NCBI GenBank assembly: GCA_963724325.1
Contig: CAVRUH010000005.1
Location: 224,001-288,000 of the forward strand
Length of the DNA stretch: 64,000 nucleotides
From: Waddliaceae bacterium
Lineage (GTDB): Bacteria > Chlamydiota > Chlamydiia > Chlamydiales > Waddliaceae
Reading direction: 5' to 3'
Shown here: in pieces, positions 31,164 to 59,792 of the stretch
Numbering within the stretch: the stretch's first letter is position 1
Layout of the letters: the number at the start of each line of letters is the position of its first letter
Notes under the pieces: generated by a model
The model's database searches: none
What the model saw: the letters and a program-made list of their open reading frames with translations, nothing else
What the model was told of the DNA's origin: nothing
Translations under genes and position numbers: made by a program

Positions 31164-33179
31164 TTAAAAATATACATTTGTTTTACGAACCTTTAATTTA
31201 AGACTCTCATTTAATGCTTCCATAAGAGCCTTTGACAATTTAGTCACTGTAGCATTGTCTTGGACTAAATTTGCCGATAGCAAAACAGCACTTTCTACAT
31301 CTAATTGAATTCTATTTTTTAAATCAGCCATCATGAGTTTATCAAGACCCATGCTTTCAAAATTCTGATTAAGATCTATTTTTTCATCTGGCGGGAGCAT
31401 CATCAGACGGAGTAAATGTCCCTGAACAAATGTTTCAATTAGTGGATATCTTTGGTGATGGGTTACCGTGTGGAATATTTTTAATATCGGGTTTTTTTTG
31501 TAACCTAATTCTGTCGTGATTTCATCAAGCAAGAGGTTTTCTTTTTCCAAATGTGCAAAAACTGCGGGCCATTTTATGAGGATTGATGCTATTTGGGTTT
31601 TATCTTGGTAAAAAAGGGTTTCTAATAATTTGAAGGCATCTTCCATATGTAAAAGTTCCATGCGATTGGGGAGAGTAGTGTCGATAAGTTTTTTGACGAT
31701 TACGTGCTGTGTATCCCAAGGGCCCCATTTTATTGTGAGTGAAGGCATGCCGTGGTTCTTTCTATAAAATGACAGGGCATCCAGGAATGAATTTCCGGAT
31801 GTATGACTTGCTTTTCCTAGGGGTGCGAGTTCGCCTATAGGTGAAGATAGCATTATGAAATGTTCAAGATCAAGATCCTTTGAAAGTTCGTGCAGGTTCC
31901 AACTGCAAGCTATTTTCAGGTCGAATGAAGGCTTAAATCGTTCCCAATTCATATTTATAAGAAGTTCGTTGTCAATGGCTCCTGCAGCATGTATTATGCC
32001 TTTTATTGGTGGAAATGTTTTCTTAATTTCTTCAAAGATTTCTTTTAGAGCTGATATATCACTTAAGTTCACTTGAAATATTTCAATTTTTATGCCAGAC
32101 GCCCGCCATTCTTTTAGCAAGGCTTCCATATGTGCGGACTTATCGTGAGAATCTACCAAAATCAGATTTTTAGCGCCATGTGCAATGTACCAAGTTGCAA
32201 GTAATAGTCCTACAGGTCTGAAGCCGCCGGCGACCATATAGGTTGCATCAGCAGGAAAGTTCGGGATGCGAATTTCTTTAATACCTGATCGCACCATTCT
32301 GTAAACTTGTCTTTTCCCATCTTTCCAGGCTATTTGCGGTTCATTGGATTTGGAACAAACTTCCAAAAATAATGTTTCGGCAATGTTTGCTATGTCAGTT
32401 TTGGTGTCAAAGCCTATAGAGCAACAATGCATTAGAGGATTTTCTCCTTGGATGACTTTGCATACGGCTGCCAGGGGCCATTGGACTATGCTGTCAAAGC
32501 TGCCGTCGTTGATGCAACTTTGTGAGACTACCCAAAGTTTTGGTGATTTTGAGAAATTTAAGGAATCGAATCCTTTGACTACATTGATAAGACAGGAAAA
32601 TAGTGGTTTGTGATAGGACTCGATTGAGTTAACCGTTGGTTCAGACGTAAAATTTGTAGGCGGGCAAAGAAAAATCACACCTTCAAAGTAACTGAGGTCT
32701 TTAAATTGTGAAAATGAATTCTGGAGATCATCTTGAGATAGGGGATTCACGACAAAACAATTTTGGAGTTCTTCCATTAATAGTTTTTTTATTAGAGGCA
32801 ACAGGGGGTCAGATTCGATGCCTATAATTAGCCAGTTACCTTGGAATGGCAGGGAGTTGATTTCTGGTTTAGGACTATTTTTCCAAACGAATTCATATAG
32901 CCAGTCTTTGAATTCATGTAATCTTGATTTAATAAGATATTGAATAATTGATTCGGCATTGGGATTTTGCAGTAAAAATATTGGGTGTAAATTGATTGAA
33001 AATTCTTTGTTTAAAGCATCGACAAGCAAATTAATTTGCATTGATTCAAATTTTAAATCAACTAAAGAAATCGCTCTTGTGTACATTTTTTGTTTTTCTT
33101 TTGGAAGTATGCCAAGGATTATTTGATCAACGGTTTCCCCTATGCTCTCAGGAGTAATATTTTTTTGTTTATCCATCAT
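31164..33179 (-). CDS. Stand-alone PKS-like ACP-KR-ACP protein with degenerate catalytic motifs
   Basis: N-terminal ACP-like segment (LKFESM...NPNAESI); KR domain (GIIHAAG, WNLHEL, FLDAL, WGPW); C-terminal ACP-like segment (MGLDKLM). Confidence 0.8.
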   Translation of the reverse strand: MMDKQKNITPESIGETVDQIILGILPKEKQKMYTRAISLVDLKFESMQINLLVDALNKEFSINLHPIFLLQNPNAESIIQYLIKSRLHEFKDWLYEFVWKNSPKPEINSLPFQGNWLIIGIESDPLLPLIKKLLMEELQNCFVVNPLSQDDLQNSFSQFKDLSYFEGVIFLCPPTNFTSEPTVNSIESYHKPLFSCLINVVKGFDSLNFSKSPKLWVVSQSCINDGSFDSIVQWPLAAVCKVIQGENPLMHCCSIGFDTKTDIANIAETLFLEVCSKSNEPQIAWKDGKRQVYRMVRSGIKEIRIPNFPADATYMVAGGFRPVGLLLATWYIAHGAKNLILVDSHDKSAHMEALLKEWRASGIKIEIFQVNLSDISALKEIFEEIKKTFPPIKGIIHAAGAIDNELLINMNWERFKPSFDLKIACSWNLHELSKDLDLEHFIMLSSPIGELAPLGKASHTSGNSFLDALSFYRKNHGMPSLTIKWGPWDTQHVIVKKLIDTTLPNRMELLHMEDAFKLLETLFYQDKTQIASILIKWPAVFAHLEKENLLLDEITTELGYKKNPILKIFHTVTHHQRYPLIETFVQGHLLRLMMLPPDEKIDLNQNFESMGLDKLMMADLKNRIQLDVESAVLLSANLVQDNATVTKLSKALMEALNESLKLKVRKTNVYF

Positions 33180-33256
33180 ATTCTACCTCTTTCCTTAAAT
33201 ATTTAGGATTTCAAAATAATTGTCAATATCATATTATAAATTTAATTTGAGGAAAA

Positions 33257-33841
33257 ATGGATAACAAAATTGCAGAATTATTAAGGCAAAAGCTTAATAG
33301 TGAGAGGATTGCATATTTTTTTGGGAGTTATGGACTTGAACAGTTGCCTTTTTTTTCAGAGGGTAGAGTCACGAACTTATATTCAATTCATGATAATGAA
33401 AAGATAATGCGTACCTTGGCAATTGTTGATTTTATTCAGCCGATTCATCCTGCACTTACGGATGTTCATCGCGAAATTATGGAAGGAAAATCCCTAGCAT
33501 TGACACTCCGCCAGAGAGGGTGGATGGTCAATAAAGTGCCGATATATTTTGGAATAATTTTACTTTCGTCGCGTTTGATGGAATGGATGCGAGAAAAAGA
33601 GAGCAACGAGGGGGCAATTCATATCTATCAGATGCGGGTTTCTAATGAGGGGCAAAAGGATGAGATTCCTTATTGTGTTGTAATTGAAATTCATAGTCCT
33701 CAATATCTTACATCTGAAAAGTTGCGTGCAATATATTTAGATCAATATGATAATTTTCGAATACGTACTGACGATGTTGTGAAGTTATTAGATCGAGTCG
33801 CAAAGGTAATTTTCAATCTGAAAATACCTAAGGAATTGTAA
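33257..33841 (+). CDS. Hypothetical protein (possible chorismate-lyase/UTRA-like fold)
   Basis: SD GAGG; LNSERI..FGSYG, RTLAIVDF, EIHSPQYL; fold assignment is speculative. Confidence 0.6.
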   Translation: MDNKIAELLRQKLNSERIAYFFGSYGLEQLPFFSEGRVTNLYSIHDNEKIMRTLAIVDFIQPIHPALTDVHREIMEGKSLALTLRQRGWMVNKVPIYFGIILLSSRLMEWMREKESNEGAIHIYQMRVSNEGQKDEIPYCVVIEIHSPQYLTSEKLRAIYLDQYDNFRIRTDDVVKLLDRVAKVIFNLKIPKEL

Positions 33842-58437: not shown

Positions 58438-58556
58438 AAAAATACTTGTGTAAATTTCTGGAAAAAATTAGTATCCAATTATAAATCGAAAACAATGAAT
58501 TTTAGCTGCGAAGTGCAGTGACGATTTATGTAAAGGTAACTCAAAAAGGGAGCCAT

Positions 58557-59792
58557 ATGAATATTTCAAAAATCACCACAACTCTGTTGATTGCACTATT
58601 TTGCACAACCGCAGTTGTTGAAGCTCAGCAAAGTATCTACCGCTGGGGCTATGGAGTAAAAGCCATAGGTATGGGGGGCGTTTCAATGGCACTCCCTCAA
58701 GATAGCCAAATAGCCGCAACCAATCCAGCAGGTATGGTATTTGTTGGAAACCGTTGGGACTTAGATATTTTGGGCGGGTATAATGATGTCGTAGGAAAAA
58801 TCGAAGGCAACGCTTATCCAACAAATAATGCCAAATGCCATGATCACACCTTTTGGGGCCCCTATATAGATGGTGGTTTCAACATGATGCTGAGTGACAA
58901 CCTTTCCGTAGGTTTCTCAATGTATGGAACAGGTGGAAAAGTCAGTAATACACACAATCAAAGTACCATATATGGCACAAGCAGACGCTATGTTGAGTAT
59001 GGAGCCTTCTTCTTCACTCCAACATTAGCATGGAGATTTTGTGGATGTCATGCCATCGGTTTTGGACCAACTGCAAGCTTTGCACTATTGAAGCTGAAAG
59101 GATTTCAATCATTCGAAGGAAGTTCCATCCACCCTCACCATGTGACTGGAAAAAACTACAACTACAAACCCGGCCTAGGCTACACAGTAGGCTACATGGG
59201 TAAGTTTTTTGATTGTTTTTCAGTGGGTGTATCATATCACTCAAAGCAATGGCAGAAGAAATTTAATAAATATAAAGGATATCTTCCAGGACAAGGAAAT
59301 AACGATATTCCAGCCTACGCTGCAGCAGGGATCGCATTTCACCCTTCTTGCAGAAGTGTAGTCGGATTCGACGTTTTCCGTCACTTCAACACACAATCGA
59401 GACTTTTTGGTAATAGACTCACGATTGACCATGAAGCCGGTTCTAATAAAGGTACAGGTTTTGGATGGAAAGATACATGGGACTTTAAAGTAGGCGGAGC
59501 TTTTGATATAAACGATTGCTTCACAGTACGTACAGGCTTTAATTATTGCCTGCAACAGGTTCCACGCAGTCAAACTCTATCTAACCTCCCTGCTGGGTTG
59601 GTAGTGAATCACCATTTTACGGTGGGTGCTACATGGCATTTTAATGCCTGCATTGATTTGGAATTTGCCTTCGTTGATGGTTGGAGTACTGTTAAAGGAC
59701 GTCACTCCATTCCAGAAGCATATGGTGGAGGAGAAGCCAGCGTTCGAAATACAGAACCAGTTTTGTACTTAGGAATTGGCGTAAAGCTATAA
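58557..59792 (+). CDS. FadL/OmpP1-family outer-membrane transporter
   Basis: Signal peptide; GMGGVSMA...NPAGM plug motif; amphipathic beta-strands; Cys-rich. Confidence 0.8.
   Translation: MNISKITTTLLIALFCTTAVVEAQQSIYRWGYGVKAIGMGGVSMALPQDSQIAATNPAGMVFVGNRWDLDILGGYNDVVGKIEGNAYPTNNAKCHDHTFWGPYIDGGFNMMLSDNLSVGFSMYGTGGKVSNTHNQSTIYGTSRRYVEYGAFFFTPTLAWRFCGCHAIGFGPTASFALLKLKGFQSFEGSSIHPHHVTGKNYNYKPGLGYTVGYMGKFFDCFSVGVSYHSKQWQKKFNKYKGYLPGQGNNDIPAYAAAGIAFHPSCRSVVGFDVFRHFNTQSRLFGNRLTIDHEAGSNKGTGFGWKDTWDFKVGGAFDINDCFTVRTGFNYCLQQVPRSQTLSNLPAGLVVNHHFTVGATWHFNACIDLEFAFVDGWSTVKGRHSIPEAYGGGEASVRNTEPVLYLGIGVKL

Follow-up and report, generated by a model that had tools for sequence, protein, structure and literature searches.

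A RadH-like halogenase and split-kinase gene block in a Waddliaceae genome: a candidate unit for phenol chlorination and phosphate masking

Introduction

Does the accessory region directly past the shikimate (aro) operon of a Waddliaceae bacterium encode one pathway to a halogenated aromatic compound, or does it gather genes of several origins? The window, the whole stretch of DNA analysed here, comprises 64,000 nt on contig C5 (356 kb) of genome G000 (2.37 Mb, 84.6% complete), and the region in question occupies positions 31164..59792. This stretch is the left half of a zone of accessory genes behind the ancestral shikimate operon. A sequence-only reading had described it as one thiol-linked halogenation island wired to the shikimate genes. 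Each gene named in that reading is present as an intact open reading frame where it had been placed; a polyketide synthase (PKS) remnant (31164-33179), a lyase-fold protein (33257-33841) and two DUF4760 genes had been left out. The 29-kb stretch does not look like one pathway, and divides into an ancestral operon, native modules and an 11-kb halogenase-kinase core (33257-44200). In our best explanation, to which we give an even chance, the core acts as one unit that chlorinates a phenol and reversibly masks it with phosphate.

Two RadH-like halogenases in a compact core

Halogenase 1 (35135..36589, + strand), a Trp_halogenase-family protein, resembles the flavin-dependent phenol halogenase RadH, and halogenase 2 (40165..41631, +) is 64% identical to it. 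Both proteins contain the FAD motif GxGxxG (GGGPAG/GGGPGG) and the WxWxIP motif (WIWAIP), as defined in parts of PMC6864650. RadH is their nearest solved structure (E 5e-93; the next is 7e-51), and alignment with RadH places K78/D314 of halogenase 1 and K77/D313 of halogenase 2 at RadH K74/D325. Passages of PMC5637929 describe K74 and D325 as essential and RadH as a promiscuous enzyme that chlorinates phenols in the ortho position, acts on polyketide phenols and is inactive on O-blocked phenols. Since both essential residues are kept in both proteins, the two halogenases are probably of the phenolic type, in agreement with the sequence-only reading.

As far as searched, no close halogenase occurs in 399 other genomes of the phylum, and the core appears to be new for the phylum. 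Phylum-wide counts, here for halogenase 1 and below for the P450s, BshC, the cNMP-BFD proteins, kinase subunit A and the DAHP synthase, leave out genome G062. Halogenase 1 gave only weak motif-level matches, in 10/60 close relatives; at E<=1e-30 it matched in 5/399 genomes, all from one other family (f37) and at 33-38% identity, and in 0/73 genomes of family f32. The f37 proteins were rejected as orthologues on the basis of this identity, their separate clade and their occurrence as lone genes. They are an observation in their own right: such a lone gene lies at a fixed site by holB/lolD in five of eight sampled f37 genomes (L104-L108: G131, G373, G132, G141, G216), forming a clade conserved within that family.

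Among 5.8 billion proteins, only four outsiders are 59-71% identical to the halogenases, the next being at 48%. In a FastTree tree of 89 rows, these four group with the two halogenases at a support of 100, and within this clade the partner of halogenase 2 is an outsider, P0005 (94). Since the partner comes from another organism, the halogenase pair is likely old. A scan of genome contigs gave at most 53% identity among the matches listed, and its contexts leave out the closest halogenases. Halogenase 2 had no match in the metagenome scan, and the halogenase alignment had none in the viral scan. Across 80 related halogenase loci, CPA2 homologues occur in 21, monooxygenase homologues in 13 and a P450 homologue in one; the CPA2 count is in line with the proposed association of such antiporters with halogenases.

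Halogenase 1 is embedded in a tight run of genes on the + strand. A NahG/NicC-family FAD monooxygenase (33929..35131, assigned from solved-structure matches) ends 3 bp before it, and the CPA2 cation/H+ antiporter (36586..37842) overlaps its stop by 4 bp. The run is headed, 87 bp before the monooxygenase, by a gene with a predicted chorismate-lyase fold, which fits the earlier comparison with pathways that pair a chorismate lyase with a halogenase. The best solved match of the monooxygenase is tropone 2-monooxygenase (E 3e-89), followed by NicC, vanillate 1-hydroxylase and 4-hydroxybenzoate decarboxylase (E 1e-71), and the NahG/NicC group includes decarboxylative hydroxylases of 4-hydroxybenzoate and vanillate. 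Family genomes contain only relatives of 27-31% identity (1/7).

A split kinase encloses halogenase 2 and a phosphoesterase

The second half of the core carries a phosphoenolpyruvate (PEP)-utilising kinase in two pieces. Subunit A (38363..40042, - strand; 559 aa; GGVLCHCAIVARE) contains the substrate-binding and phospho-His domains, and subunit B (43352..44200, -; 282 aa) contains the ATP-binding PPDK_N domain, recognised by PF01326 (E 1e-63) and its motifs. Between them lie halogenase 2 and a calcineurin-like metallophosphoesterase (41621..42472, +; Pfam and motifs), whose frames overlap by 11 bp, and a 201-aa protein with a signal-peptide-like N-terminus (42524..43129, -) that has no Pfam or NCBIfam hit. 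Sections of bioRxiv 10.1101/2022.04.28.489975 describe two-subunit enzymes with PPDK_N and His domains that phosphorylate phenolic hydroxyls and accompany a phosphatase. The suggestion of a split dikinase and a phosphorylated aromatic is borne out at the level of gene layout, in that the two-subunit arrangement resembles that of phenol kinases.

The best NCBIfam hit of subunit A is PRK08296, under the cut-off, and the protein resembles enzymes of the rifamycin phosphotransferase type. The matches of subunit A in relatives (2/149; 2/7) are confined to the His domain of PEP synthases of the ordinary, 800-aa kind. At least six of its 150 nearest relatives are proteins of the nonribosomal peptide synthetase (NRPS) type with a subunit-A-like C-terminal domain (6/11 scanned), one of them named CmdD. 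We note that P0328, P0341, P0353, P0356, P0387 and P0321 are NRPS-type proteins ending in a TE domain and a subunit-A-like domain. A PEP-type C-terminal domain has an unexplained role in chondramide synthesis, according to part of PMC8949500. The NRPS-terminal domains might be kinase halves that need a separate PPDK_N partner.

A lyase-fold protein as a candidate source of 4-hydroxybenzoate

The first gene of the core (33257..33841, +) has no Pfam match, and its assignment to the chorismate-lyase/UTRA fold comes from a predicted structure. The alignment-based model reached a pLDDT of 93.6; a single-sequence attempt (pLDDT 37.8) was unusable. The model superposes on DUF98/Rv2949c-type proteins with Z 12.2 and a root-mean-square deviation (rmsd) of 3.0 over 135 aligned residues, on UbiC with Z 8.2 and rmsd 3.4 over 123, and on UTRA domains with Z up to 10.5. 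On this structural resemblance, the protein is a candidate 4-hydroxybenzoate source. A signal-peptide-like N-terminal extension of 19-41 residues is found in 51/51 homologues and is gone from the window protein, which places the protein in the cytoplasm, where chorismate is. The missing extension is not a long-read error, because one public short contig covers 33199-33610. The family occurs in 19/400 further genomes from the phylum and order of G000, and one homologue is labelled Candidatus Protochlamydia by its source; both facts point to a chlamydial placement of G000. The family is thus a chlamydia-centred one with a lyase/UTRA fold.

Proposed mechanism and the points against it

In the mechanism that we propose, the signal-less lyase-fold protein would make 4-hydroxybenzoate from chorismate, which the NahG-family monooxygenase would hydroxylate with loss of the carboxyl group, giving hydroquinone. 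The two halogenases would add chlorine ortho to the hydroxyl, using FADH2 from an unlinked flavin reductase. Kinase subunits B and A would then phosphorylate the free hydroxyl through phospho-His and so neutralise a protonophore-type toxin inside the cell; the phosphoesterase would take the phosphate off and release the product, and CPA2 would buffer ion and pH stress. Passages of PMC13097137 state that the chlorophenolic ambigols need a free hydroxyl for uncoupling. Because RadH is inactive on O-blocked phenols and ambigol uncoupling needs a free hydroxyl, phosphorylation is best placed after halogenation, as self-protection or storage. We consider the chances slightly better than even that the core is, in general terms, a halogenate-and-phosphorylate unit; the exact entry from chorismate to hydroquinone is doubtful.

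Several observations weigh against this explanation. The core is known from one genome and was absent from the relatives searched; kinase, phosphoesterase and lyase-fold genes occur in 0/80 related halogenase loci, and halogenase 2 and the kinase genes are on opposite strands. The stacking residue F328 of RadH is Leu317 in halogenase 1 and Leu316 in halogenase 2. No flavin reductase lies inside the core block, one being encoded on contig C7, and the monooxygenase has a tropone hydroxylase as its top match, ahead of any enzyme acting on 4-hydroxybenzoate. The closest named member of the halogenase subfamily, from a cyanobacterium, adjoins type I/III PKS genes, not chorismate genes. The entry step is further weakened by the lyase-fold protein itself, which differs from its family at 11 columns of strong conservation, one of them an invariant Gly (G81A), and gave a probability of 1% in a profile comparison with E. 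coli UbiC; because of both, it may be decaying. Its family appears to be exported, judging from the N-terminal extensions, and in 18 chlamydial loci (L110-L127; 1.5-kb flanks) its members have no island enzymes beside them.

The shikimate operon is ancestral

The aro genes lie immediately before the stretch on the - strand: aroA, aroK-aroB, aroD-aroE and aroC (24858..30354; Pfam/NCBIfam), housekeeping genes that form the context of the island, and a 264-aa aroG-type 3-deoxy-D-arabino-heptulosonate 7-phosphate (DAHP) synthase without a regulatory domain (30357..31151; PF00793). They are the sole copies in the genome. The congener G001 has the same aro order and the same upstream genes at 53-77% identity; beyond aroA it has entirely different genes and no island. 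By this comparison, the shikimate operon is ancestral.

A second, AroFGH-type DAHP synthase gene is located on contig C4. Relatives of the 264-aa enzyme occur in 1/5 family genomes and 1/119 other genomes: a 43% homologue heads a DAHPS-CM/TyrA-aroA arrangement and the whole aro operon in G047, and a 50% homologue precedes CM/TyrA (chorismate mutase/prephenate dehydrogenase) in G003. The position of the enzyme is therefore inherited, and an extra DAHP synthase recruited for the cluster was ruled out because the same type heads the aro operon in G047. Contig C7 carries menF-menD-menB-menA-menC-menE-like genes. The genome has one chorismate-binding enzyme, MqnA has zero matches in it, and no CM/TyrA was found in it by tblastn. 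From these results, menaquinone is probably the ordinary sink for the aro genes. With an ancestral operon and this sink, the adjacency of the island is no evidence of wiring, and the proposed link between island and shikimate genes is not supported. The sole remaining point in its favour is the presence of two DAHP synthases for so small a sink.

Native modules around the core

The bacillithiol genes are split between a DUF4760-bshC-DUF4760 run (44158..46727, +; bshC 44862-46151; the first DUF4760 probably starts near 44341) and bshB-bshA (51360..53175, -; NCBIfam). NCBIfam scores against cut-offs are 502.7/273.7 bits for BshA, 285.3/265.8 for BshC and 172.5/182.5, just under, for BshB1; the window BshB is 57-63% identical to the products of bshB genes next to bshA in relatives. 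BshC occurs in 14/199 other genomes, in 11 of them at E below 1e-60. The bshC gene follows trmB in 5/6 loci (20 kb) and also in G003 and G006, and this site is closed without bshC in both G000 and G001; in G002 and G005, bshBA is flanked by comF and dnaA. Neither bshA nor bshC was found in G001. The coiled coil of the window BshC is shorter than that in G003. Because the base of the BshC tree (14 rows) is unresolved, relocation and re-acquisition of bshC are indistinguishable. As a separate observation, G039 has BshC within a 1182-aa fusion beside a bshA-like gene, and the zone that holds bshABC also contains, about 25 kb away from these genes, a phytochelatin-synthase-family gene (L301:16787-17551).

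A 74-aa peptide with eight Cys (53384-53608, +; an open reading frame) and a cNMP-cNMP-PqqD-M50 protease (53622-55616, -; cNMP, cyclic nucleotide monophosphate-binding domain) form a pair spanning 53384..55616. As signs of a possible RiPP system (RRE, M50 protease and precursor), the HEAAH motif is present and the PqqD and M50 hits are under the cut-off. The congener G001 (L287:8774-11201) has a tandem peptide (37%) and protease (44%), with no other island gene within 20 kb; its peptide has 0 Cys. The pair is convergent in the window and tandem in G001, and the shared peptide region ends in GMLGI. The peptide had no usable match in Atlas, and the M50 fusion and the reductase described below had no full-length relative in plasmid searches. 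An NmrA-like NAD(P)-binding protein (46796..47749, -; Pfam) lies between the bshC run and the reductase.

Because bshBA and bshC occupy conserved housekeeping sites in relatives and the peptide-protease pair stands alone in G001, the idea of one thiol-linked island is not supported. The bshABC, peptide-protease and aro modules are scattered and unlinked in relatives, and the core was found in no relative searched.

P450s with cyclic-nucleotide-binding partners

At the right end of the stretch, all on the + strand and identified by Pfam, a 679-aa cNMP-cNMP-BFD-FAD/NAD reductase (47899-49938) precedes P450a (49951-51306), and a 441-aa cNMP-cNMP-BFD protein without the reductase module (55743-57068) precedes P450b (57082-58437; 69% identical to P450a). 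A FadL/TodX-family porin (58518..59792) with a 28% paralogue on contig C11 follows. The P450s do adjoin partners of their own, as had been stated; these partners, described before as ferredoxins, are cNMP-cNMP-BFD proteins, and the first alone has a FAD/NAD module. Residues 326-669 of the reductase match the reductase of a myxobacterial nitric oxide synthase (NOS) (29%, E 2e-40), for which the layout was taken from parts of PMC4436077. It shares the BFD 2Fe-2S and FAD/NAD module with the Sorangium/Silicibacter-type NOS, and differs in being a stand-alone protein upstream of a P450, with two N-terminal cNMP-binding domains and no fused NOS oxygenase.

Further cNMP-BFD copies are found on C7 (268952-270391 and 297498-299522) and in G001 (L267; 1/199 others), none of them next to a P450 of this clade. 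The cNMP-cNMP-BFD(-FAD/NAD) proteins thus look like a genus-level family, and their domain composition makes cyclic-nucleotide-gated electron donors a possible role.

The P450s belong to a small clade of 17 aligned proteins, the nearest outsiders being at 53% and 49%. Most P450s have an acid (D/E) in the I-helix at a position that is F/Y in this clade (AGFFT[TS]SP). No relative above 30% was found in 299 phylum genomes, and no solved structure matched at E<=1e-35 (best 3e-33). The metagenome scan of the clade gave at most 38% identity among the matches listed, and the viral scan of the P450 alignment gave three distant matches.

Polyketide genes inside and outside the window

The remnant at 31164..33179 (-; Pfam and motifs) has the layout acyl carrier protein (ACP)-ketoreductase (KR)-ACP. 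Its KR motifs are degenerate and the second ACP reads GLDK, so that it is likely catalytically dead. It is 31% identical to a G004 protein of 1166 aa over residues 433-1096 of the latter, which make up its C-terminal 60%. This relative (L285:10786-18073; AprA-MT2-like/ACP/KR/ACP, with degenerate motifs) is beside a 1151-aa carboxyl-transferase-like protein and an efflux operon. The statement that no full PKS is present holds within the window and fails for the genome: contig C1 carries a 2017-aa type I PKS (KS-AT-DH-ER-KR-ACP; 617873-623926) and a type III PKS-methyltransferase-oxidoreductase operon (145490-148375), which are far apart in G000 and neighbours in G001 (L289). Separately, the same-family genome G003 (L168, L276-L281) is unusually rich for a chlamydia: it contains large PKS and PKS-NRPS genes, the longest open frame reaching 8560 aa, as well as an NRPS/PKS-DUF6875-P450-ABC cluster.

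Support and composition of the zone

Public short contigs from five soil runs (X1-X5) match parts of the island and of the aro operon with zero differences, at similar depth; X1-X4 belong to one study and are possibly the source sample of this genome. The island has a GC content at third codon positions (GC3) of 0.309 versus 0.348, with 7% of equal-sized runs as low, and its codon fit is above average; a recent foreign island was ruled out by this native-like codon use and modest GC3 shift. Promoter and terminator counts are at or under those of shuffled sequence, and there is therefore no sign of co-regulation. Rfam had zero matches across 24000-64000.

Two copies of a palindromic 183-nt repeat occupy 37913..38301. 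With 422 BLAST pieces across the genome, they are genome-wide rather than pathway-specific and were rejected as a feature of the cluster. Palindromic intergenic repeats also occur at 28802-29085 (a second family, 154 BLAST pieces), 60799-60963 and 61900-62017. Just right of the stretch, at 59887-61790, are effector-looking patatin-like and OTU/otubain-like genes. Elsewhere, polA (window 7182-9934) and a KdsA-like gene (G000:C1:1035856-1036638) seem to be split by frameshifts, possibly through assembly errors.

Alternative explanations

The whole stretch could instead form an integrated ambigol/bmp-like pathway, in which the extra DAHP synthase boosts chorismate and the core makes halophenols; the P450s would couple these, giving biaryls or biaryl ethers, while bacillithiol would scavenge the quinones and FadL would export the product. 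All P450s (two), halogenases (two), kinase-pair genes and bsh genes that the genome possesses are confined to 26 kb. Five single-locus units in that space have a probability of about 7e-8 under a uniform null, a figure that does not hold because this null is wrong for an accessory zone whose unrelated genes run to about C5:318,000. The coming together of bshC and bshBA from two separate ancestral sites, the two DAHP synthases with no CM/TyrA by tblastn, the acid-less P450 clade and the two coupling P450s that passages of PMC9214053 report for the ab cluster also speak for such a pathway. Against it, the DAHP synthase type is an inherited member of the aro operon, the menaquinone operon accounts for the shikimate genes, the cNMP-BFD copies on C7 and in G001 have no such P450 beside them, P450 homologues accompany only one of the 80 halogenase loci, sigma-70-type sites in the stretch show no excess (48 versus 55 in shuffles), and bacillithiol, reported for Waddlia, is a general thiol in Chlamydiae in the account given in parts of PMC6282198. 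We regard this pathway as quite unlikely.

It is unlikely, too, that the halogenases decorate a phenol that is not derived from chorismate, either a host phenol or a polyketide phenol (alkylresorcinol or acylphloroglucinol) made by the unlinked type III and type I PKSs. The promiscuity of RadH and its use of polyketide phenols would fit this, as would the two PKS loci that are adjacent in G001 and the cyanobacterial subfamily member. The cluster of that member (L025:15-12556) contains an acyl-AMP ligase, a P450, a PKS I with TE, a PKS III, a methyltransferase, a sulfotransferase, a RadH-like halogenase and a monooxygenase. The PKS genes of G000, however, are on another contig and are common to G001, which has no such halogenase; the window remnant has degenerate motifs; and the monooxygenase beside halogenase 1, presumably co-transcribed with it, belongs to the hydroxylases of simple aromatics. 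Alternatively, there may be no pathway at all: the monooxygenase, kinase, P450s and bacillithiol would independently inactivate soil or host aromatics, with some genes decaying. Beyond the stretch, unrelated accessory genes extend for about 30 kb, up to ileS at C5:318,000, the coding strand changes often, the polyketide remnant and BshC are truncated and shortened, respectively, subunit A resembles rifamycin phosphotransferase-type enzymes, and the native-like codon use gives no sign of a single recent transfer. Such a detoxification collection is nonetheless improbable in our view, given two intact, anciently diverged halogenases with all catalytic motifs, and given the frame overlaps of halogenase 1 with CPA2 and of halogenase 2 with the phosphoesterase. 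To our knowledge, flavin-dependent halogenases are biosynthetic, not degradative.

We thus favour the 11-kb core as one chlorinating and phosphorylating unit. The other modules occur unlinked in relatives, and we therefore take bshABC, the peptide-M50 pair, the cNMP-reductase-P450 modules and FadL to be independent units that came together in one zone. By homology, bshABC, the peptide and RRE-M50 pair, the cNMP-reductases and the PKS remnant are chlamydial stock, with counterparts at other, unlinked sites in relatives.

Comparison with known systems

The window halogenases share with the fungal phenol halogenases RadH/Rdc2 the features given above, and differ in being bacterial, in forming two paralogues with Leu for F328, in having no adjacent resorcylic PKS and in standing alongside a kinase and a phosphoesterase. 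The ab (Symphyonema/Fischerella) and bmp-type (Pseudoalteromonas, Microbulbifer 4-BP) clusters resemble the region in combining a gene of the chorismate-lyase type (in the window a candidate), one or more flavin halogenases and one or more P450s with electron partners; the comparison is one of gene content as described for these clusters. The ab cluster, in the work of Duell et al. 2020, is said to hold a DAHP synthase, two halogenases and an NRPS-like carrier. The window has no adenylation/carrier enzyme of that kind, and five AMP-binding genes lie elsewhere in the genome. Unlike these clusters, which passages of PMC10579414 and PMC9214053 describe, the window has RadH-like halogenases, an added NahG-type monooxygenase, split kinase and phosphoesterase, and P450s that form their own small clade 8-15 kb away. 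By analogy, the core would work like the bmp/ab halophenol clusters, of which it is at most a candidate member.

Compared by layout, the split kinase resembles the phenol kinases PpsAB (phenylphosphate synthase), AcvAB and CreHI in its separate PPDK_N and phospho-His subunits and the nearby phosphatase-type gene. In contrast to these systems, the window has no carboxylase genes, so that the context is not catabolic carboxylation, and its kinase genes are separated by the inverted halogenase-phosphoesterase pair; the subunits (559 and 282 aa) are also shorter than AcvA and AcvB (71 and 40 kDa, tagged). The chondramide synthetase CmdD is linked to subunit A in that the relatives of the latter include CmdD-like NRPS termini. 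Relative to the usual bshABC pathway, the window genes lie away from the two ancestral sites and the coiled coil of BshC is shortened.

Implications

Environmental chlamydiae carry NRPS-like, RiPP-like and type III PKS clusters, and protist-infecting chlamydiae shield amoebae from Legionella by an unknown mechanism, as described in parts of 10.1101/2021.12.21.473556. The main text of this survey of biosynthetic gene clusters, as far as it was available, mentions neither halogenation nor P450s, although its supplementary cluster table could list one; by title or abstract, no description of a chlamydial halogenase was found in the literature. The compact, expressible block of halogenase, kinase and phosphoesterase makes the idea of chemical defence testable in E. 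coli. Halogenases 1 and 2 are, from their sequences, putative new bacterial RadH-like biocatalysts, and subunit A is a free-standing relative of the unexplained PEP-type domain that ends the chondramide synthetase.

A wider proposal, which we hold to be a long shot, is that this obligate intracellular bacterium has put together a pathway to chlorinated hydroquinones or coupled halophenols, using chlamydial parts of its own and acquired ones, and keeps the products as phosphate pro-toxins to be released against competitors of its host or co-infecting bacteria. The native parts would be the re-targeted lyase-fold protein, the unregulated DAHP synthase and the relocated bacillithiol genes, and the acquired parts would be the RadH-like halogenases, the split kinase and the acid-less P450s with cyclic-nucleotide-gated reductases. 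If true, this would be the first halogenated metabolite of the Chlamydiota, and the CmdD-type PEP domain would gain a function.

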